Assembly: GCA_003971905.1 (NCBI GenBank) | Contig: RSEE01000143.1 | Coordinates: forward strand, 112,912 to 132,911 | Direction of reading: 5' to 3' | Origin: Moniliella sp. 'wahieum' | Lineage: Eukaryota | DNA length: 20,000 nucleotides | Part shown: positions 3,350 to 20,000 of the stretch, piece by piece | Layout: each line of letters opens with the position of its first letter | Position numbering within the stretch: position 1 is the first letter of the stretch | Position numbers and translations under genes: made by a program | The notes under the pieces: model-generated | What the model was told of the DNA's origin: nothing | The model's database searches: none | The model's input: the letters and a program-made list of their open reading frames with translations, nothing else

Positions 3350-3603
3350 GATGGTGGCAAGAGACACCGCACGCTCTATGTGGGTCGCAGTCTTGGCATG
3401 AGAGGGCCGCCCCGTCGTTCCGCCTGCCATTCATTGTTTGTGGCCTGGCTTAATAGTAGTACTAGAGCAGGCTACGTGAGTGTGCCGATCCGGGCCCCCA
3501 AGTGCCCCCCTTCGAAACTGGACGCTTGGCTCGTTGAAGCTTGAGCTTGAGCCTCGGATCCAGCGATCAGATCGATCAGCCAGCGGCGGTAGACTCTCCC
3601 TCA

Positions 3604-3642
3604 CCATTGGCTGGCGGTCTGGTGACACGTGACGCGTGACGC
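3604..3642. promoter_or_regulatory. candidate elements in the divergent GNAT/RNR-like promoter: reverse CCAAT, CACGTG and MCB-like ACGCGT
   Basis: ccattgg at 3604-3610; gacacgt-gacgcgt-gacgc at 3624-3642 with ACGCGT at 3632-3637, about 240 bp upstream of the RNR-like ATG. Function is inferred only. Confidence 0.35.
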
Positions 3643-3873
3643 AAGGCCTGTTCAACTTTCAATGTTCGCCTCTCAAGTTTCAAAACGCCTGTCCAACTCA
3701 TTAAACCCTCCCATTCGGCTCAAACGTCAAACCTTAATGGGCGTGCTTAATGACGGGCGGAATTCGGGAGGCGGAGACAGCGCCCAGCTGGCCGCCTTGC
3801 TTTTTTCTCCAAGCTCGAGAACAGCCATTTACTTGGGGAAGCACTCCTGCTGCCCTCTCTCGAGTGGCCAACC

Positions 3874-6161
3874 ATGCCGCTGCTTCGGAAACGAGGTGCG
3901 TCTCCCCTCCCTTTCCTACCTTGCATCTTTCGGCCGGGAGCACTGACCCCCCACTCATCCGCCAGACGGACGACGAGAACGCTTCTCCCCTCGCAAGCTG
4001 GAGCGGCGCCTCGAGCAGTTGGGCGCCACCCAACTGCCGCCGGCCCCAGTGGTGGCCACGCTGCAAGCAGCCGTGTACGAAGGCATGTCCACGAAGGAAC
4101 TGGACAATGTGCTGTGCCGTGCCTTGGCCAGCCACGCGCTTGTGCACCCCGAGTACGAGCGGATCGCAGGCCAGGTGGCCCTGGCTGCGCTCTATCGCGA
4201 TACGGAGGTGGCGTTCAGCCGGGTGGCTCGGCAGGCCCGCCCTGAGCTGGTACGATGGGTGGACATGTACGGGCCGGAGCTCGATGCAATTGTGCAGCAC
4301 ACCAGGGATACTCGGCTGGGGTATGTGGCGGTGCAAACGCTCTGGCCGCACCTGTTGCAGGTTCAGGGACAGGTGGTGAGCGGCCCCAACATTTTTTTCT
4401 CCGTTGTGCTTTGGCCGTTCCGCATACCAGTCTCAATGAGGTACAAGAGAGGTACGATCTCCTTTCTCTTGGCATCCTCCTCCCCCCCGGCTTGACTGTG
4501 TGGTCCAGGGACAACAACACGCTCGCAATGGAAGATGACTCGCTGGAGGGTATCTTCAACACAGTCAAGGCCGCCGCGCTCACAGTCAATGAGGGGGCAG
4601 GCTGAGTGTCTCCAACATCCGTTCCGAGGGCACATCGATCGCTGGTACCGGGGGGCGATCCAGTGGGGTGGTGCCTATGCTGCGTGTGTAATGAGGCCGT
4701 GCGGAGCAACAATGGAACGATGCGGGTATATCTCGAGCCTTGGCATGCCGACCTGCTCTCCTTTCTCGATTTAGCTAAAGCGAACGGGAAAGAGGAGCGG
4801 CGGGCGCGATGGTTGGAATATGGACTGTGGGTGCCAGACCTGTTTATGAAACGGGTCGAACAAGACTTGCCGTGGTCCTTGATGAGTGCCGACGAGTGTC
4901 CCGGGTTGCAGACGGCGGTGGGCGCTGCGTTCGAGCAACTTTACGTCCAATACGAACAGGCCGGACGGCACGACGCACCTCCCCGCACGGGACTTGTGGA
5001 ATGCCATTCTCACTGCCCAACTGGAGACGGGAGGACCGGCTCTACTCTACAAGGACGCGGCCAACAGCAAGTCCAATGAACGCAATCTGGGCACTGTTCT
5101 CGGTAGCACCTTCCATACGGACGGGACACAGGTCGCCTCTCCCTCGGCAGCGCAGGTGAGGGGGAGCATTCTCTCTCTTACTTTATTGAGGGGGCCGAGA
5201 TCAACCACACAAGCTGCACCAACGAACAAAGGAGGTGGTATCATTCCTTGCTGCCATGGGCGGGCGTGCTCTCGGCATCTCCCTCTGCGGGTTGCTGGAC
5301 ACTTTCCATCTTCTTGGCGTGGCCTACGATTCGGTTGAGGCGCGTCGTATCAACCGTGAAGTGTTTGAGACGGCGTACATGCCGCGATGGAGCGGTCCAT
5401 GGAGCTGGCCCGGCAGCATGGACCCTATAGCGGATGGGAAGGCAGTCCCATCTCCCACGGCCAGTTCCAGTTCGACCTGTGGCCGCACGCTATGCTATCG
5501 GGACGGTACGACTGGGAGCAACTGCGCACCCAGGTCATGCAGACAGGGGTGCGGCACGCTCTTCTCCTAGCTCAAGGGGGTAGCGCCGCGATAGATCCTG
5601 CCGAGTCCAATGTGCTGTGCCACACTCTCAGCAATGGGCAACAAGTGGAGTATGTGCGACCGAGTCTGGTGCGTGCGTTGATCGCTCTCGATCTGTGGAA
5701 CGAGGGGATACGAGAACGGATTCTCCTCCGGCGGGAGCATTGCCTCTCTCACCGAAGTCCCAGCCTGGATCAAAGCGGTGTACAGGACGGGGTGGGAGAT
5801 GAGGCAGCGTGCAGTCTTGGACCAGGCGATTGAGCGGGCTCCCTTTTTGTGCCAATCCCAAACTATGGCGCTCCGCTTGGCGCACCCGACGCGCGGGCAA
5901 GTGACGAGCATGCACTTTTACGGCTGGAAGCACGGTTTGAAAACAGGGTGTACCCAACTGCTTACTTCCCCGCCCTGGCGCGGACGCAGCCGGGGCCACC
6001 CATTTACTACCCTGTCGACCCGCTCGCCCTCGGTTCGCTCCCGCTCCTCCTCTTGCTCCTCATCGCGTGCATCGGCTTCAACGTATAATACCACCGCTCT
6101 GCCCGAAACAGACGCAGCTCAGTGCTCGTTTGACGAGGGTTGCCTCATGTGTGGGGGCTAA
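3874..6161 (+). CDS. RNR1: class Ia ribonucleotide reductase large (alpha) subunit paralogue, predicted catalytically inactive (~740 aa after repairing about 8 indels)
   Basis: Exon 1 is 3874-3895 and exon 2 starts at 3966. Together they give MPLLRKRDGRRER (ATP cone), ERPQHFFLR, MEDDSLEGIFNT, VSNIRSEGTSIAGTGGRSSGVVPMLRV, YLEPWHAD, GKEERRAR, LWVPDLFMKRVE, ETGGPALLYKD, TSMHFYGWKHGLKTG and C-terminal GCLMCGG-stop. All are collinear with eukaryotic RRM1/RNR1. Frame breaks near 4378, 4601, 4689, 4970, 5170, 5210, 5378 and 5727. Confidence 0.93.
3896..3965 (+). other. spliceosomal intron (70 nt) in the RNR-like gene
   Basis: GTGCGT donor, pyrimidine tract, CTGAC branch point at 3943-3947 and CAG acceptor. 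Splicing restores KRDG in frame with ORF 4019..4495. Confidence 0.88.
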
Positions 6162-7363
6162 CTGCCTCTTCCGATACCTGAGCATGGACTCATCCACCTC
6201 ACTACTTTTTGTTCTCATTCGCGTTCGCTCCTCGTGCTTGTACAGATACCATTGCATGTATCTGTGTCTCCATCGATGGAGCTAGGCGGCCGAGAGTGAA
6301 ATGGGCGACATAACGTAGGTGTATTACGAGGGGGGGGGCTCAGTTTCCTGCCCCGGGCAAAGGCGGACGACTCGCATTCGTCAGGTTCTGCGAAAGTACT
6401 AGTATGCATCATGATTACATCCTGCTTTTCCCCCTCGTTTGGCTGAAAGATTTGGCTGATGGCTCGCGTAGCCCGTCTTCAGCGGTAAGTACTCCTCTCG
6501 TCAACCTGAAAGTCATGACTGTCTCGCAAGAGGAACCCCTTGTTCGTCTCTGCCTTATTGATATTTCCCCCAATGAAGACTCGCCTCTTTCCCCTGAGGC
6601 TCACCTCCACCATGGCCAGTATTACGCTCGGCGCTGCTGGGCTCGAAGGGGATTGGTGGGTCCCTCGCTCGCTCCGGATGTTATCTCCTCGCCGTGGCTG
6701 GAACACTTCTTTTGCCTATGCCCCCTTTCGGCTGCAACGAGGATGAATACGGCCCTGTCGCCAAAGAGAGCAGAATCCAGCTCTTACCTACCTAACGACC
6801 ACCTACTCGCTCCCCTGGCCTTTCGCCCTTGGACCCTGCCTGAGCGAGACCCTCCCACCCACACCCGGTGGATCCGTGGGCACCGCCCGAGCTATTTCTT
6901 GCTCCCCCAACACATCCGACGACAAGGCATGCAGTATTTTGAAAATGAGCTTGGCAAGACAAAAGGGCAAAGTGAAAGGGAAGACAAGGAAGCTTAAAGG
7001 TTAAACAGTTGTGATAAGGCCAAGGAGGCGTTAGTAGAAGAGCAATGGGCAGTGCTTGGCGCGATTGAGACAGAGGCGTGGAAGCTCAAGTTCATGAAGC
7101 AAGTTCCATGCATCCCAAATCCCGAGCGGGCACCGATCACAGCTGATGGGCTGGAAGCAGGGGGAATCAAGTAGAAAGGAATGGGAACAGCAATGCACAC
7201 ACTTGCTCCCACGCAACCTGCTTGAGGCACCTCTTTGGTTATCTTGGCACAGTTCCGCCAGGCTAGGGCACAGCACCGCATGTTGGTGACCGTGGTGGCG
7301 GGGGTGGGGGGGAACAGGGAGAGGGGGAGAGCGCGCAAGGGAGGGGGTAGCCAAATAAGGCAA

Positions 7364-8918
7364 TCATCTCCTCAGCAGAAGGGCGGGGAATACAATGGGT
7401 ATGAAAGAGATCGACCACGATAGTGGGGTGAAAAGAAGACTTTTGCTGGCGCTTTCAGAGGCCAGGCGTTCATAGTGCGCCCGTTGGCGAGGAAATTTGT
7501 TCTTGCTCCAGTTGAAAACGTAGATGGAAGACTTTTCAAAGCCATTCAGGGCGTACTTGGCAAACAGGGCCTCGTGTACGCGCTCTGTGGGACGCAGGAT
7601 GAAGTCCAACATGATGTTGGCCGTGGAGAGCAGTTCGGATTCAGAGTAGCCCGAGTAATGCACCATGTTGGGGTCCCAGGTCGGAGTGGTTTCAATCACC
7701 TCTCTTGCCAACCAGAACGCGGCAGCGGCAAGGAGTGAAGGCGGATGGCCGAGAAGGCGCATGTCCATGATGCTGATCTCCACCCTACATTGTGTCAGCG
7801 GCAACGAATGGCCGGGCAAAAAAATTATTAGGAGGGCACGACAGATACTTGGCAATGTTGCGAGTCTGGAGATCATACTCGTCTGCTTTGGAAATGCGAC
7901 GGAGAAAATTCAAGGGGTTGGGGTAGGACAGATCAAAGTTAAGGGTGCGGAGAATGTAGCGCTCAGCGCCCAGAATGTCTTGCTCAGATACAGCGGCCAT
8001 GTAGGCATAGTTTTCTACCGAAGGGCAAACTACCTCCTCGTACTTGGCCGCGAGGAAGGGGCTGCGGCGGCAAGCAGCTGGAGGCGATCAAGGGATACAA
8101 AGCGGACGCTGAGCATGCGATCCATCACGTTAACCGCTAAGAAAGCGTTTCGGACATGAGACGGAATTTGTGTTGTACACGGATCAGCCAGTTGATGGTC
8201 TTACACCGGTGTGCCCATGTCATATCCTCTTGCAGGTCAATGTAGTGCGGGTTGGGCAGTGTCTGGAGCTGGACACCCATCGGTCAGTCTGCCGTCTGCG
8301 TGCACGACGTGCCACAGCAAGTCCAACAAAGGACGAAGCGCGTACCTCGATCCTGCGCATGTAGGCGAAAATGTCCTGGACATACTCATACGCCATCGTC
8401 GGGTCCCTTCATCTTCCAGGTCCAGATCGGTCCAGCCGGCGTCCTTGGGGGGCAAGTCAGGGCGGCTGGGCGACTGAGGGACGTATGGGGGCAGGGGGGG
8501 CGAGGACAGGGCGGGGGCAAGAGCAGGCGCAGGAACAGGAGAAGGGGCAGGGTCAGGGTCAGGGTCAGGGTAACGAGCGCGCTTCGTCGGGCGGCTGGGG
8601 GCAGTGGTGCAAGAACGCTTTTTTCCGGCGACCTGTGGCTGCGGCGGGGTCGGGGCGTCGGGGTCGGCATTAGCCGAGCCGGGGTGGAGCGGCAGCCGTT
8701 CGCGTGCGACGGCAGCCGACGCGTTTCCAACGCTGGCGGTGGGCCCATGGGGGTCGGGGAGCCGCCGGGGGGCAGGGCCAGAGGGGCGAGCAACGTCATG
8801 GCACCCCCAGCTCCCGGTGGTGGCAGCGCGCCAGCTGGGGTGGGCGCCAGGCAGGCAGAACTTATGGCCTGGCTGCCGAGCGGCGGCCACACACGCCCTG
8901 TGCTGAGTGGGCTGTCAT
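7364..8918 (-). CDS. B-type (G2/M) cyclin, divergent; start uncertain (8918 is one candidate ATG)
   Basis: DLDLEDEG(D)PTMAYEYVQDIFAYM, intron 8345-8269, then WAHRCKTINWLIRVQHKFRLMSETL, LAVNVMDR, AAKYEEVVCPSV, AERYILRTLNFDLSYPNPLNFLRRISKADEYD, intron 7842-7785, then PPSLLAAAAFWLAR and HYSGYSESEL. These are the N- and C-terminal cyclin boxes. The N-terminus is Pro-rich with basic KKR/KRAR stretches. Confidence 0.92.
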
Positions 8919-10195
8919 CGCACCGTGCACTGGCCTTGTGCCTGTGCGGCCCCACCACCACCAGCCTGGCCGGAGACTGCTCCTGGGCCTGTGTCCCGCC
9001 GGCAGGCACCACAGCGCACTTGCACTGCGACGCAGCCGGCCCCGGATCCCGGGTTTTTTGGATGGCGTTTGCGCTTCTTTGGCCAGCACCCTCCACCGAG
9101 GAAGTCTGACGAAAACACTCTCAACTTTGGGGACGGGAAGCAAAGTGGCTGTCCTAGTCCCGGCCACTCGTTACCCTGCTCCTTAGCTTTTCTTCAGCGT
9201 GCTGAAGCTCTGCTCTCTCCCACAGCTCTCACATCTCACAGCTCAGCTTGAGCGCTCACAGCTCTGACAGCTCTCAGCGCGCGCACCTGTGGCGGACCCA
9301 TGCCTTTTCCCCATTACGCACCACAGACGGCCACATGATGCATCTTGGAGATTCGCCAACCCGCACACGGAAGAGGTGTTCAAGATTAGACAGGCGTCTT
9401 TCCCCTGTACCGCTGTGCCGCTAAGAATGTTTCTTCGGATGTGATGATGTACAGCAGTAAAAGAAGTCATCGACAGCAGACATTATTTTCGCTCATGCGC
9501 TCATGTACATGGTACCAATTGAAAGTCATGAGAATGTCACACGTTCAAACGTGTTTTTGCCTCTCAAGGTCGAATGATGCATCAACATCAGTAGCCGTCT
9601 TGCTACATGGCTAATCGAAATTTCTGGTGCACAATCTTGTGGGCCTTGCCCACCTTGAATTTCGTACATAGTCCTCACATATCTATCCGGAACCTTGTTA
9701 CCGGCAATTTCGATTAGCTATGTAGCGACACCAATTGAACACAACAGGAGCCTATAGGTTTTGCTATAGTCTCTCTCGCCATTTCTGGATACAATTATCA
9801 CGGTTTTACAAGAGGCCTGTTGAGGCCACACCTGGAAGGGTCAGCAGTGCGTACAACAAAACTGATGCATACACAGGTAGACTTCGAAGATCCAAGAGGG
9901 GATCGAGGGAAAATATGATAAACGGCGCCATTTTTTTTGGGATGTATATGGAGGGACCGCCGTACTATTATAGGTCCCAACACAACTGCTGATGGATATC
10001 TGAGGTGGTGGTGCTAGTAAAATGATTCCCACGCCAAACAGGCCAGGGCTGTTGAGAGCAAGGATCGCGGGTGAAAAAGTGAATCACGTGGTGCCATGCG
10101 ACAATGTGAGAGGCGTGCGAAGAAGGATAGATGATGGTACCACACTAAAATCCACACTAATATACGCTTTTGAAGCTGGAAGGCTGATGGCAACT

Positions 10196-10234: not shown

Positions 10235-10635
10235 ATTGAATTGCAGTTGCCAGCCGCGCGGAAAGATAGACAATCGGTGCACGGGCCAGCGGTGCGCGGG
10301 CGCAAGAGGATGTAGGGTTGAGAGTTAAAGTAGGCGTCAGATGGCTGGCCTGTGCGGCGCTCCGAAGGGTGTTTTTGTATCTTATAAGGAAACAGTGGTA
10401 TATCGGCAGGCCGCGTCCCCCCACATGTGTGTTCTGCGGCCCACCAGCCGGTAGAGCCCCTCTTCAGATTGCGCCCGCCTCACTAATCATAGCAGGGGGG
10501 ATGGGCGGGGGGGTGGAGCGATACCAGCTACTGGGAGGCCCACCGAAAGAGGGCGCCCCCGTCCTTGGAAAAGCAGCAGAGGCAACAAGCTTCTGCGCAG
10601 GGACTGTATAGTACTAGTGAAGCTAATGATAGCAG

Positions 10636-13354
10636 ATGAAAAAAGTCTGGCGCCATCTCGATTCCAGGGGCAGTGTTGGCCACCACGCCTCAAACCCTCA
10701 TCCGTCTTCTCTCTCCCTTGGCAGAGTCTGCCGTAACGAATCTTTCCTTCCCTCCATCCGCCGTTATTGCTGGGCCCGATGGAAGCCTCCCTGCCATCCG
10801 ACCCGCCTCCCGCCTGCAGCGGGGCCGAGGCGCCTCCTCCTTTGCCCGTGCCTCCCTCCATGCACCCACAATATCTCTCACCCGCAGCGCGCGCAACAGC
10901 TTCCGCCACTCCTTTCTTCCTCATCAAGAGGACCGCACCGACGAAAGCCACACCTTTGTTCCGCCTCTCATTGCCGAGGTTAGGCCCGATCCAGGCGTGC
11001 CTCCCATTCTGCTGTCCCCTTTGCTGTGGTGAACTGCGTTGTCTTTGGCGAATTTCTGCTGGCTGGTGTAGCAGGTCCTTTCTCTTCAGTTTAATCCACG
11101 ATTTAGAACCGCACATGGACGACGGAACGACAGCCACATGGGCCGGCATCTTGGCTGCCGGCTTTTTCTTCTCCCAATTTCTCACCTCCCTGCTCTGGTC
11201 TGCCGCGGCTGACAAGTACGGGCGCCGCATTGTCCTTTTTACTTCGGCTGCCGGTTCGACGATTAGTGTCGTTCTGTACGGCTTTTCGCCTAGCCTTCGT
11301 TTTGCACTGGCTATGCGTCTTGTCCAGGGCTTTTTTAATGGTGCGTGGGCGTGGCCAAAGGCTCCGTCCGGTAGGTGCTTTCCCGTTCACAATATGCTGA
11401 TGTGTGCTAACATTGTGTCTGCCACAGTGACCTGACAGTCCCTGCAAATGAGGGCCAAGCCTTCGCTGTGCTCGGCTTCTGGTGGGCATGGGCGGTATGT
11501 TGGGTACGTCATTCTCCACTCCTTCATTTTCAACCACACTCACAAAACCATTGTGCATATACATCTAATATTCCAGACCCATATTGGGTGGAGTCCTAGA
11601 ACATCCGGGAGACAAGTATCCCTTCCTCGCTATTCCTCTCTTTATCACGTACCCGTACCTTCTCCCCTGCCTAGCGGCGGGGGCTTGCACACTGATGGGT
11701 GCGGTCCTGGCACCCTTTACAGGTCCCAATGGAGGCTCGAGACAGGAAGGGCTCCCCTCGGTCGAAGAATTTCACGAAGAAGATTCTGGCCACCCTATGA
11801 CGCCTAGGACCACCAGTTTGGTCCTAAGTCAGGCCCCACCACACTTTAGAAAAGCTTCAACTACCAGTCCCCTTCCACATGGGGTCCGAACTAGTTTGCA
11901 CCAGCAAGCTTTGCTGAACACAGCCGCAACTCCATGCGGCCGGAATCACAGATATTTGATGAGGACATGGAGAGTATGTGTCTTCAGCTCAAGTTCCCCC
12001 TCCCCTCCTCCTGTCCCTCGCCGGTTGGACGCTTGTCGTTTGCCCATCGCTTTGTTCTTGCAAACGATGACTTTCCCGTACACCTGTCCGATTTTTGGAT
12101 CGCATCGGCTATCAATGGAGAAGAGTCGGAACCCATTGTCTTTTTTGACGACACAACTCCATCGGCAGTGTCGTCACGAAACACATCCTTTTCTGAGGAG
12201 GAGACGGGCGCTACTGAGATACTTCAAGACTCATTTTCCCATGAGGAGGAGGAGCAGGAGGAGGATGAGGAGCAGGAGGAGGAGGAGGAGCAGGAGGAGG
12301 AGCAGGAGGAGGAGGAGCAGGAACAATAGCAGGAAGAGAGGGAGCAAGAGCAGGGCCAACAGCCTGGTGAAGAGGCGCCACTACTCCCTGCCTGGCCGCG
12401 CAACGGAACCAGAGGTGAGGCCCCACGGCTTTCGGTATTTTCCCCATTTGAGGAAAGTTCAACCACCGGTCTCCGTCCGCTTTCTTCCTGGGCCGGAGCA
12501 GGGTTAGTACGGGGCCGCGCTTGCCAAGTCTGTATCGCTACTCGGGCCTCGGCATGGAGCTTCCATGGCACAGCCGAGTCTCTTTGTCCCCAGCATACGA
12601 CATCAGGCCATGGTGGGGGAGGGAGTCGGCACAAGCGCAGGGGGGCGAGATCGTTGCCCTCCCTGAGCGACAGGTCAAGTACGGAACAATCCCTGAAGCA
12701 TCTCCACTGCCTCCTCCGCAAACTGGAACGTTTAATCGACTTCCGCTGGTAATAATCGGACATTACGCTTTGCTTGGCTTGCACGCCTCCACGTTTGATC
12801 AGGTCTTCCTTTCCTTCCTCGTGGCTCCGTGGGAGAATGGCGGACTGGGCTTGACAGCAGCTCACTTTGCTGCGCTAATAGCCTTCATGGTCATCTGTCA
12901 GTTGGGATTCCAATTTTATGTGTATCCGTACTTGGTCCGCCTTATGGTCCATTGACGCACCTTGGGATGCTGCGAGTTGGCCTGTTACTTTATCTACCGA
13001 TCTACACCCTTTTCCCGCTCCTACGTTCCCTTCCCCTTCCCGAATCAGGGTGATGGCAGTCATGGTACTTCTTTCGGCAGTGCGCTGGCTTGCAAACATC
13101 TGCGCGTTCACTGCCGTGTCGATTTTGATGAACGTACTCTGTCCGCCGGAGCTGGTGGCACTGGCTAATGGTCTAGCCCAGACCGTTTCTTCCGCCGCAC
13201 GATTTATTGGTCCTCTCTTGGGCGGAGTAGTGTGGGGACTGTCGATCGACGGCGGACCCAATGCTCACCCGTGGCCTTTCAATTTCCATCTGGGTTTTGG
13301 GTTGTGGGCCTCTTGGGCTTCGCCGGGCTGATCCAGTCATGCTGGATCCGCTGA
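10636..13354 (+). CDS. major facilitator superfamily transporter (YCR023C/ZIFL-like) with a long acidic central loop; start uncertain
   Basis: VVNCVVFGEF, WAGILAAGFFFSQFLTSLLWSAAADKYGRRIVL (MFS motif A), introns 11371-11427 and 11504-11576, GPILGGVL, YPYLLPC, HASTFDQVFLSFL, GGLGL, ALANGLAQTVSSAARFIGPLLGG, and a repaired end LIQSCWIR-TGA at 13352-13354. Contains several indels and one in-frame TAG at 12327. Confidence 0.9.
12243..12326 (+). repeat. GAG/CAG trinucleotide tract encoding poly-Glu/Gln in the MFS loop
   Basis: EEEEQEEDEEQEEEEEQEEEQEEEEQEQ in ORF 11934..12329. Confidence 0.9.
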
Positions 13355-16286: not shown

Positions 16287-18510
16287 ATGCCCGACACGCC
16301 TACAGGCCTCATTCCTCTGGCATACAAAACCATTCCTCCCCTTCATCCACATCCCACCTCACCCCCACCACCTTTCTCCCCTACCTCTCCCTCCCCTACA
16401 ACCTTCACTACAAGCAGGCTGGTCCTTGCTACACCCGTCTCTGGAAGACATCTCGCGCTGGACGCTCTACTCTCTGGTCGATCATTATGCATATTCTCTC
16501 CCGTTCCGAGCAGGCTGGCCCGCTCCAAGGGCTGCTGGGCGCCCTTTCCCTCGCCCTCGCCACCTACAAACCCACCCCCATTCTCCCCACCAACCTGAGC
16601 ATGACCGATGTGCCCCTTCCGAACGGAAACCAGGGTGGAAGTAGCTTCCAAGTCGCCGGCCCTTCGAATGGAACCTACAAGGAAATCAAGCTCCCTCACC
16701 AGAACCTGAACGAGAGTGAGTGGGGTTCCCCGTCGACCCTATACGTTCCGACAGACTGGGCTACCTCCTCCTCGGGCAACAACTTTGCCTCCACCGTGGG
16801 GCCGGGCGGGTGCAGGGTCCTGGATGCCTACACACCCACCTCTTCCCTTCCCCAAGCCGACGAATTTGCCCCCTTTGACCGGACCAGCGCAAATATTATG
16901 CGTTACCGCAAGCAAATTGCTGTCAACCTGGGCAGTTGGTACGTTCTTCGCGTCTTCACTACCCCTCCTGCCCACAGAAAACTGACTTTGACCATGCAGG
17001 TTTGTTCTCGAGAACTGGATGGTGCCTTCAATGTTTACCTGTGCCAATCATGCGGCGTCGGCAGAGCACGATGTGTTGTCCGGGTACGGTGTTTCGCAAC
17101 AGGGCTTGTCCAGCGCCAAGGCGCGTTTGGAGCAGCACTGGGACACCTGGATTAACAAGGCGGATTTTGCCAGGATGGCCTCGCTGGGCATCAACACGGT
17201 GCGCATCCCGATTGGCTATTGGAGTATGGGCACCACCAAGTGGCTCGACAATTCTCCGTTCCAGGCGTGGGTGTCCGTATATGTCAATGAGTTGCGCTAC
17301 CTCGCACGGGCGATCAACTGGGCTGCTGAATACGACATTGGTGTGCTGATTGATCTGCACGGTGCATATGGCAACCAGAATGGCCAAGCACACTCGGGCG
17401 TATCGGATGGCAATATTGGCTTCTTTACCCCGACCAACATGGATCGCACGACGCAGCTGTTGGTGCATCTGACCGAGAAGTATGCCAACGTTACCAACGT
17501 GATTGGGATTGAGACGCTTAACGAGCCCAATGGGTGGTACCGCAACCAGCTCTATCCCTGGCTGACAACAACAATGAACGCGATGCGCCAAGCCAACAAC
17601 CCACAAGCCAAGTCCTTCCCCATCTTTTTCCACGATGGTTTCAGCTTGTCTCAGGGCTCCGCCTTTGTTCAGGGTCGCAGCGACTTTGTCGTGCAGGATA
17701 ACCACATGTACTATGTGTACTCCCAGTCGGACAAGAGCACCTCTGCCAGCGGCCACACGGCTCAGGTCCAAGGCTCAGTTGCTCAAACCTTGTCCAGTAA
17801 CAGCCGTATCGCCCGTAACAATCTCATTGTGGGCGAATGGAGTTGCGCGCTGGCACCCAGCAGTCTTTCGGGCGCACGGGATGCGCACGTCTCCCAGCAG
17901 AACTTTTGCAATGCCCATCAAGCGTGTACCGGCAGAACGCTGGGGGCTGGTCCTTCTGGTCGTGGCGGTTGGAGTCGTGCGAGCAAAATGCGGGTTGGTG
18001 CTTTCAGGCGACTGTTCACACGAAGCTTATGACGAGCCCCCTTAGGGCATGACCAACACTGGCTCCAACTCAGGATCCAGTTCGTCAGGTGCGCGGAATC
18101 TGCTGCAGTCAGCGGGGAAGAACATGACGCAGGTATTGGCTGAAGTCACCAATGGTGTCAAGGCGCTTCCTGACCCTACCTTGCCCTTCTCGTCTTCTAA
18201 GAGGGGCGGGAGTGGGGCGGCCCGGGCGGCCGCGTTGGTCCGAGGCCTTTCTTCCCAGCAGGAGGCAGGAAATACGGGGTACAGCGACGGGTTCATGAGC
18301 GCCAAGATCTTTGCCTCGCAGCCTTCTGTAGCGCGGATGGGCTTCGCGGGCAATACATGGCAGACTCGTTTGCCGCACACGTGGCCCAAGGGACACTTGG
18401 GCCAGACGAGTGGGATGACTACAGCGAGCACTTTGCCAATGGCCTTTCCGATGCTGAGAACAAGATCTCCGCATTGGTAAAGCATACAGCGAATGAGGCG
18501 CGCTGTGTAA
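16287..18510 (+). CDS. glycoside hydrolase family 5, exo-beta-1,3-glucanase-like (both ends approximate)
   Basis: Intron 16939-16999 removal gives VNLGSWFVLENWMVPSMF. Also GINTVRIPIGYW, IDLHGAYG, acid/base NEP (Glu 17523-17525), nucleophile VGEWS (Glu 17835-17837), GWSFWSW, CEQNAGWCF and a C-terminal GYSDGF region. Both catalytic Glu residues are intact. Confidence 0.93.
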
Positions 18511-20000
18511 CTTCCTTGCCGGTGTCGTATCGTTCAATCGATCTCGTCCGTGATTCTTCTTCCGGTCGTATCTCCACTCCTCATTGCCCTAACCCATCTC
18601 TGTCTGTACCCGTGCTCGTCACTCACTTCATATTCGAACTCCTGTATCAGTGGTGTTACCTATTAGTAAGTATGTGGCACCCATGTGCACATTTTGGCTT
18701 TGATTGCCTCCCTCCCAGATTCAACATTCAGCAGAGGGGATCAAGCACTTCGCGCTCTCTTTGCGTCGGGATCATTTCGGAGCACATGGTGCATCTTCTC
18801 TACTTTCGCGCGCTATCTCGCGCGCCAACGTATTATCATCTTCAAAAATTCAAAGTGTCTGTCAGTACATAGCCCTCTATGTCCCTACTTCTTCATCCGT
18901 CACATAGATAAAGGATTTGTATTCCGTATCTGGCCTGGTTGGGAGATTCAAGGGAATGACTCCGAGGAAGGCACAACCATCGAGACTCCCATGTAAAGAG
19001 AGAGGCAGACTATACTGAGTGAGTATTGATTCAAGTATATCAACTGGAACGAAAAAGAGGAAAGGGGGAAATGTGGTAGCGACGAGAAAATTGGAGACGA
19101 CAGATGAGAGAACGAGACATGCGTTTTGCACATCCGCCGCGCGCGTGCAAGTGGCCCCACAAGGTGAGGTAGCAGTAGTAGTGTCATACTCCAGCCAGCC
19201 CCGTCTAACCTCTCATCGACATATTTTCATGCATCTCTCGAGCTCTCATGTCCTCTTTTACGATGTGCAGTCCTGAATCCATATTAGAGGACTAATCCGA
19301 CTGTAGCATTGAGCGCGAACGATGATGTTACGAATCGAGCGAAGATCGCGTGTGGCGGTGGCAGTGAGGAGACAAGCAAATCGAGAACAGGGAAGCGTCT
19401 GTAAGGTGTCTCATTCCTCCGTATGGGTTGGCAAATACCGATAGTTTAGGGGAAAAGCCACCGTGCCATTATGAAGAGACACGCGGCCTATAAAAGGGAG
19501 GGAAACAACACAGAATATGGAGGAGAGGAGAGGGGGGAATTCACAAGTTTGTGAGGAGTGACCACAGAGCAATGAAACACAGGTGCAAAAGGGGGCAGAT
19601 GTGTAGCAATCTATACGCATGATCCATACCACAGAAAAGGGTAGGGAGAAAACCAAAAAAGCAACCAAGGAGAGTGCGACTATTACATAATCATTGCGAC
19701 AGAGTGAGGTACCCGGGGGAAGATGGTGGCCACCTCGGCCATCAGGGGTACTATCAGTTCAATATCGTGACTGTTGTGCTGAGATTGAAGCAATATCACC
19801 TGTTGTATTGGACGGAGTAGCTGAGTCTTCAGCAGATCCATCAGCATGGCCCTATGTCACAGTCGGGGGGCTAAGGCGAGGGAGATCATAGTCCTGACTA
19901 TCCAATGAATGTAGCAATAGTTCGTGGGGAAGAAGCAACAGCAGATGACATGGTGCGAGGCGGAAGAACAGAGAAGACGTGAGAGACGCTGGGGACGAAG

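Follow-up and report, generated by a model that had tools for sequence, protein, structure and literature searches.

The window, a stretch of 20,000 nt from Moniliella sp. 'wahieum' (contig RSEE01000143.1, forward strand), carries a gene for a paralogue of the large (alpha) subunit of ribonucleotide reductase (RNR). The gene occupies 3874-6161 on the plus strand, from an ATG at 3874 to a TAA stop at 6159-6161, and is the sixth alpha locus of this genome, which also has five ordinary alpha loci and six loci for the small (beta) subunit. Elsewhere in the window we found a cyclin gene (Pfam Cyclin_N/C) at 7197-9054 on the minus strand, a GH5 glycosidase gene at 16403-18478 on the plus strand and, by eye, an MFS-like transporter at about 10487-13331. 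Repeats of ~215-230 nt at 1793-2252 and 19850-20000, of which the genome holds dozens of copies at 91-95% identity, are probably LTR- or MITE-like. The parts of the alpha paralogue are listed below, with their state in its orthologue P0001 where this was informative.

3874..3895, plus strand: exon 1, encoding MPLLRKR and the first base of Asp7; it holds Lys5 and Arg6 of the cone signature
3896..3965, plus strand: phase 1 intron of 70 nt, GTGCGT...CTGAC...CCGCCAG, with GT..AG borders and CTGAC as a branch-point-like word
3966..6161, plus strand: exon 2 to the stop, the remainder of a predicted catalytically dead RNR alpha of ~740 aa
3966..4205, plus strand: ATP cone of four helices, with pocket residues D7, G8, E11, K17, L18, R21, T53, L56, D57 and R88 kept
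3989..3994, plus strand: Pro15-Arg16 (CCT CGC) replacing Phe15-Asp16 of the hexamer face; Ala-Gly in the orthologue
4064..4066, plus strand: Gln at the position of Ile44, whose role is taken from the available part of PMC5819950; Gln in the orthologue as well
4103..4105, plus strand: Asp57 (GAC), present in both proteins
4528..4557, plus strand: MEDDSLEGIF with Asp226 (4537-4539), effector anchor where dimer helix A starts; 10/10 identical to the orthologue
4617..4667, plus strand: loop 1, with Arg256 (4620-4622), Ile262, Ala263, Gly264 and Thr265
4699..4716, plus strand: site of loop 2, with a 7-residue deletion that removes Gln288 and Arg293 and is common to the orthologue
5102..5122, plus strand: finger loop, GSTFHTD against SSNLCTE (Asn427 to Thr, Cys429 to His, Glu431 to Asp)
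5952..5957, plus strand: Thr-Gln at the radical-transfer pair Tyr737-Tyr738; Thr-Thr in the orthologue
6141..6152, plus strand: C-terminal CLMC (CxxC redox shuttle), kept in both proteins

The intron of the paralogue lies at the same codon position as in 5/5 canonical RNR1 copies of the genome, whose introns measure 87-92 nt. Exon 2 contained no in-frame stop and nine apparent frameshifts, each of which we read as a deletion of 1-2 nt. Frameshifts of like kind were present in the five canonical copies (12, 4, 12, 7 and 6, the count of 4 being a lower bound, as a good part of the reference came from that copy), and the cyclin exons adjoining the paralogue had single-base gaps relative to their counterparts on contigs C8 and C23, so the breaks in the paralogue were attributed to assembly errors. 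The stretch 3874-4205 is free of frameshifts, the earliest one being near 4376, and because the errors are mostly deletions of 1-2 nt, they do not explain a change from Asp to Arg within the frame. The window's gene was 42% identical to its own canonical alpha (283/669), and its identity to a canonical copy at the three codon positions was 0.53/0.64/0.37. We also noted a 16-residue deletion near 5264 (about 5260-5270, in the region of canonical IIDGNYYPVEEARRSN) that is absent from P0001. Upstream of the paralogue, by 242 nt, a single ACGCGT at 3632..3637 overlaps a CACGTG, a weak signal given the eight ACGCGT in the 20-kb window. The canonical RNR1 promoters (600 nt upstream of the L014-L018 starts) hold three to four of these boxes each, which we take to be MCB-like motifs.

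Since Lys5 and Arg6 are encoded by exon 1, the cone gives a gapless match only after splicing of the 70-nt intron, when it reads KR and then DGRRERFSPRKLERR (spliced frame of the whole cone, MPLLRKRDGRRERFSPRKLERR). An earlier sequence-only reading of this DNA had aligned the cone without gaps to that of the human enzyme, with K5, R6, E11, K17, R21 and D57 kept and Arg at position 16, and these observations were borne out. Residues 7-24 of human 3HNC and yeast 1ZYZ were matched without gaps (the yeast structure directly, and both through the genome's own canonical copy), the five signature residues are present in the spliced frame, Asp57 is the GAC at 4103-4105, and the codon at human position 16 is the CGC at 3992-3994. 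Further cone residues present are D7, G8, T53 and L56; the signature itself reads LRKRDG against VxKRDG, and helices 1 and 2 have four residues fewer between them (four to five across the paralogue and its orthologue). Without exon 1, the Pfam ATP-cone model matched the paralogue with E=3.4e-4 and 21.5 bits, under the cut-off of 25.8. AlphaFold modelled the exon-2 piece as a four-helix cone (pLDDT 90) with Arg16 at the start of helix 1, and the top Foldseek matches of this model were human RRM1. An A-site is predicted from this four-helix cone, in which K5, R6, E11, K17, R21 and D57 are all present.

Pieces of Pfam PF02867 and PF00317 were matched, and the ten-stranded barrel with its N-terminal helical domain was recognized. 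The catalytic residues, by contrast with the active enzymes, are gone: there is no Cys codon in any plus-strand frame at the sites of C218, C429 and C444, and the Cys218 segment preceding MEDDSLEGIF is degenerate, with no TGT or TGC in any frame at 4500-4545. Both the window's gene and P0001 lack the thiyl Cys429 with Asn427/Glu431 and the redox pair Cys218/Cys444, and Lys243 is not kept in the paralogue. Conservation was highest outside the cone: the Asp226 segment, loop 1 and dimer helix B were 38/40 identical between the two proteins, against 399/689 elsewhere (p=4e-7), and region 253-272 with loop 1 was 19/20 identical and kept 8/8 family-conserved positions. Defining family-conserved as ≥90% conserved in 149 active enzymes, we found such positions kept in both proteins at 12/13 in the anchor, against 8/50 in the catalytic site with loop 2 (p=5e-7) and 127/216 elsewhere (p=0.018), these regions having been drawn after seeing the alignment, so that all three p-values describe rather than test. 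Before the CxxC, both proteins also have a Ser/Arg-rich linker, RGHP.TTLS.R..SVRSRSSS (window 6000-6100; P0001 735-770), which is absent from the canonical copies and unusually well conserved for a disordered tail; it is a possible phosphorylation or docking site. The gene product is predicted to be a catalytically dead RNR alpha without a catalytic site, radical path, loop 2 or cone hexamer face of its own, and by its missing catalytic features it falls outside the active class Ia enzymes.

When 1.84 billion representatives were searched with the cone piece, a single clear orthologue emerged, P0001 (E 2e-22); the RNR match ranking after it was at 1e-9. The intact, 787-aa P0001 comes from Logan assemblies, in a cluster of five members. 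Its identity to the window's gene is 60% (437/729), with the same catalytic losses and the same loop-2 deletion, and AlphaFold modelled it as a full alpha (pLDDT 87) with a Foldseek TM of 0.86 to human RRM1. In 500 simulations of neutral drift to 60% identity, the mean number of stops was 15.8 and the minimum 7, against 0 observed; this deficit and the intact 787-aa orthologue argue for purifying selection. The paralogue thus appears to be a selected pseudoenzyme, its own frame resting on indels read as assembly errors. Further orthologues were sought in several ways. The window's cone piece, run in a word-index search against longer proteins, gave 0/2702 scored candidates, and a search with P0001 near its own length gave, among the best 120 of 1271 matches, only itself above 43% identity. 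Residues 155-300 of P0001 had 42 matches among shorter proteins, the best 19 of which spanned almost all of the region at no more than 45% identity, while the few that exceeded 50% covered only 41-68% of it. Matches in viral contigs (five loci) and metagenomes (ten) were all 33-43% identical, all with an intact NLC-E motif and none an orthologue, and the ESM Atlas returned ordinary RNR clusters only. The dead alpha is accordingly known from two lineages only.

With regard to position 16, Arg is indeed uncommon in active enzymes. Among 141 catalytically complete, cone-covering homologues taken from our own match lists (mostly bacterial, viral or unnamed, with only three named fungal), the residue was Asp in 125, Glu in 7, Asn in 4, Ser in 2, and His, Gly and Gln in one each, with Arg in none, and it was Asp in 5/5 canonical copies of the genome. 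A wider set of 236 cone-covering rows had Arg in a single one, P0096, whose N-terminus is visibly misaligned. That engineered D16R blocks dATP-induced hexamers, as stated in the sequence-only reading, agrees with the available parts of three papers (PMC3267527, PMC6326808, PMC5819950). Yeast F15S is proposed to behave as D16R does (PMC6326808), and in the human ring contact F15 and I44 are described as a hydrophobic core at the two-fold axis, next to D16 (PMC5819950). What was not supported was a natural Asp16-to-Arg equivalent, as the Arg proved not to be conserved in the orthologue, an outcome that the sequence-only reading had itself named as a refutation. The cone of P0001, DGRRERFAAGKLARR, has Gly at 16, as do P0130, P0132 and P0133, all of one orthologous lineage; P0131 begins downstream of this position and is uninformative there. 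Residues 15/16/44 of the hexamer face are P/R/Q in the window's gene and A/G/Q in P0001, and the conserved feature is loss of this face (F15 to P/A, D16 to R/G, I44 to Q in both) rather than a mimic of D16R. Positions 14, 15, 16 and 19 all differ between the two proteins and the pocket positions do not: identity was 9/10 in the pocket, on a residue list based partly on general background, versus 29/69 in the remainder of the cone (p=0.006), position 53 being Thr or Ser. Only 9/30 family-conserved cone positions were kept in both proteins, a cone far less conserved than in active enzymes, and K5/R6 of P0001 were unreadable, its called N-terminus appearing to run through the intron. These comparisons suggest that the cone retained its nucleotide pocket while its oligomer face drifted, and that Arg16 is probably just what a single lineage carries at a decayed interface position rather than a D16R switch favoured by selection. 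As it is not conserved, the Arg16 detail alone is of little import.

The canonical RNR1 of the genome groups with named basidiomycete records among the matches (Clavulina 73%, Mycena 70%), which marks the window as fungal DNA. In trees built with FastTree and IQ-TREE, the window's gene and P0001 formed a clade (support 1.0) on a stem of 0.79 substitutions per site. The unconstrained tree joined this pair to other long branches, not to fungi, and a position as sister to host RNR1 was not rejected (AU p=0.083, 2000 replicates). The tree leaves room for a viral or bacterial origin, yet this is disfavoured by the intron common to host RNR1. Because the intron position is shared with all five canonical copies, the dead alpha is most likely a duplicate of host RNR1. 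It is single-copy in the assembly, and tblastn detected no dead-alpha remnant at the corresponding locus of C8 and C23 (best E 0.11), indicating that it is not needed in every genome set and speaking against a core role. Between the same flanking genes, C8 and C23 have about 7.3 kb with other long ORFs (L036:2554-8900, L038) in place of window positions 3357-7197, and the only match left between the two intervals is 90 nt long, at 6811-6900; these ORFs presumably encode a COG-complex subunit-like and an Nst1-like protein. The canonical RNR1 loci (C101, C31, two on C12, and C118) comprise two near-identical pairs (96% and 98%) and one single, with 82-85% between groups, and the beta loci (C171, C82, C42, C41, C86, C87) comprise three pairs with 88-93% DNA identity within and 84-86% between pairs, a copy pattern resembling that of a hybrid or of several genomes mixed in one assembly. 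A co-degenerate beta partner was considered and rejected, as none of the six paired beta loci is divergent by DNA identity.

The paralogue resembles human RRM1 and yeast Rnr1 in fold (by the P0001 model), in its cone pocket (K5/R6/E11/K17/R21/D57), in D226, R256 and loop 1, and in the CxxC. Unlike class Ia alphas, it is without C218, N427, C429, C444, Y737 and Y738, its E431 is Asp or ambiguous, its loop 2 and MPTAST substrate loop are deleted or decayed, and its F15/D16/I44 face is replaced. With the engineered D16R and the yeast F15S it shares a non-Asp at 16, a non-Phe at 15 and a predicted failure to form the dATP alpha6 ring, but those are active enzymes with one change, whereas the paralogue is dead, several of its face residues are changed and its Arg is not conserved. 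Another second alpha, which the paralogue may resemble in its mode of action, is yeast Rnr3, found in Rnr1/Rnr3 complexes and reported to cross-talk with Rnr1. Unlike the paralogue, which lacks the catalytic residues and is only 42% identical to the host alpha, Rnr3 retains them along with some activity. Also lacking catalysis are HCMV UL45 and MCMV M45, which, in the accessible part of PMC5469499, have an RNR alpha fold without catalytic residues; however, these are viral and act on RIP1/NF-kB signalling, whereas the paralogue is cellular, bears an intron and keeps the cone, anchor and CxxC. Yeast Rnr4, the beta-prime of Rnr2/Rnr4, offers the precedent of a dead paralogue kept as a structural partner (PMC5673236, as excerpted) and a model of how the present gene may work. 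It is a small subunit, while the alpha paralogue would be a putative large-subunit counterpart.

The half of the protein that the paralogue has kept appears to be the one serving a partner, and the deleted half the one serving itself. Its CLMC is kept though it has no active-site disulfide to reduce. The CxxC tail of the yeast enzyme is said to act on the neighbouring monomer. In solved structures, loops 1 and 2 that touch the specificity effector belong to neighbouring subunits (PMC5819950), the anchors for its ribose and phosphate are supplied by one chain (PMC4728125), and the communicating S- and C-sites sit in adjacent monomers (PMC9221315). An effector bound by D226, R256 and loop 1 of one chain is thus read by loop 2 of its neighbour, which governs the active site of that neighbour. 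A homodimer of the paralogue could use none of the retained anchor and CxxC, and a heterodimer with canonical alpha could use all of them. We propose, giving this an even chance, that selection may have retained a dead alpha-prime to partner active alpha without catalysing anything itself, in heterodimers unable to close the inhibited ring. Alpha-prime would pair with canonical alpha through the four-helix bundle; effector anchored by its D226, R256 and loop 1 would be read by the partner's loop 2 and so set the partner's substrate choice, and its CxxC tail would help to re-reduce the partner's active site. Because the two cones of each dimer in the alpha6 ring link it to the dimers on either side, a heterodimer with only one hexamer-competent cone could not close the dATP-inhibited ring, and the dATP shut-off would be weakened. 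Since RNR alpha2 is described as half-site reactive in the part of the preprint at hand (bioRxiv 10.64898/2025.12.21.695763), a dead half need not cost activity. A broader version, which we hold tentatively and lean slightly against, would have a cellular alpha/alpha-prime RNR as the large-subunit counterpart of Rnr2/Rnr4, with half-site asymmetry fixed in two genes, alpha-prime giving the anchor and redox tail in trans and capping heterodimers against the alpha6 ring. The sequence-only reading had already supposed that mixing with active alpha could relieve dATP feedback. With the dimer interface retained, mixing is more likely than that reading was able to show, and any relief in mixed oligomers would depend on the whole decayed face rather than on Arg16. 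For alpha-prime, then, we infer expression, nucleotide binding, heterodimer formation, control in trans and feedback relief.

The kept interface would suit a decoy equally well. As a dominant negative, the protein would titrate away active alpha or beta through these surfaces (or sequester dNTPs or a protein inhibitor) and lower RNR output, for example outside S phase. Its dimer helices and anchor are kept, residues 297-420 hold 41/47 conserved positions, and every heterodimer would have one dead active site out of two. A decoy has no need, however, for the C-terminal CxxC or for a near-invariant effector anchor, both of which are kept in both lineages, and with alpha2 half-site in any case, the dead half need not lower output; we consider this explanation unlikely. 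A quite improbable one is that the protein acts apart from RNR as a scaffold or nucleotide sensor, either as a homodimer or as the partner of another protein, in the manner of the betaherpesvirus dead R1. UL45 and M45, without catalytic residues, bind RIP1 according to the accessible text of PMC5469499, the long stem of 0.79 substitutions per site precedes the split of the two lineages, and the new Ser-rich segment before the C-terminus is common to both. Yet a homodimer lacking loop 2 and Lys243 on both sides would have the anchor half of an S-site without a reader, and a CxxC tail without an active site to serve.

The remaining explanations concern the window's gene itself. That it is a recent pseudogene in this genome, once functional and with real frameshifts, would fit the nine breaks, the single copy missing on C8/C23 and the 16-residue deletion that P0001 does not have. 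Five canonical copies of an essential gene hold 4-12 breaks each, however, and the cyclin exons are gapped likewise; moreover, the absence of stops, the codon-position identities, and the intact splice sites, start and CxxC make decay highly unlikely. Also to be weighed is the narrow claim of the earlier reading, that Arg16 is a selected natural D16R switch. The absence of Arg from all 141 catalytically complete homologues and the loss of dATP hexamers in engineered D16R (PMC3267527 and PMC6326808, in the parts available) speak for it. Against it stand the Gly of the orthologue and of the cluster mates covering the region (P0130, P0132, P0133), the drift of positions 14, 15, 16 and 19 beside constant pocket positions, and the likelihood that F15P and I44Q are probably enough by themselves, yeast F15S being proposed as D16R-like in the accessible text of PMC6326808. 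We regard such a switch as most unlikely of all.

Dead RNR subunits are already known, as a small subunit in yeast (Rnr4) and as the R1 of herpesviruses, and in the open-access literature, most subscription journals lying outside it, we found no published account of a cellular eukaryote with a conserved dead large subunit. What is new here is a dead alpha that appears to be under selection and to retain the parts that act in trans. If its pairing with active alpha is true, it would provide a natural experiment on whether one alpha half can be purely regulatory. The same pairing would test whether the CxxC tail of one half of a dimer can serve the other half, and whether a cell can tune dATP feedback by adding a subunit that is barred from the inhibited ring.
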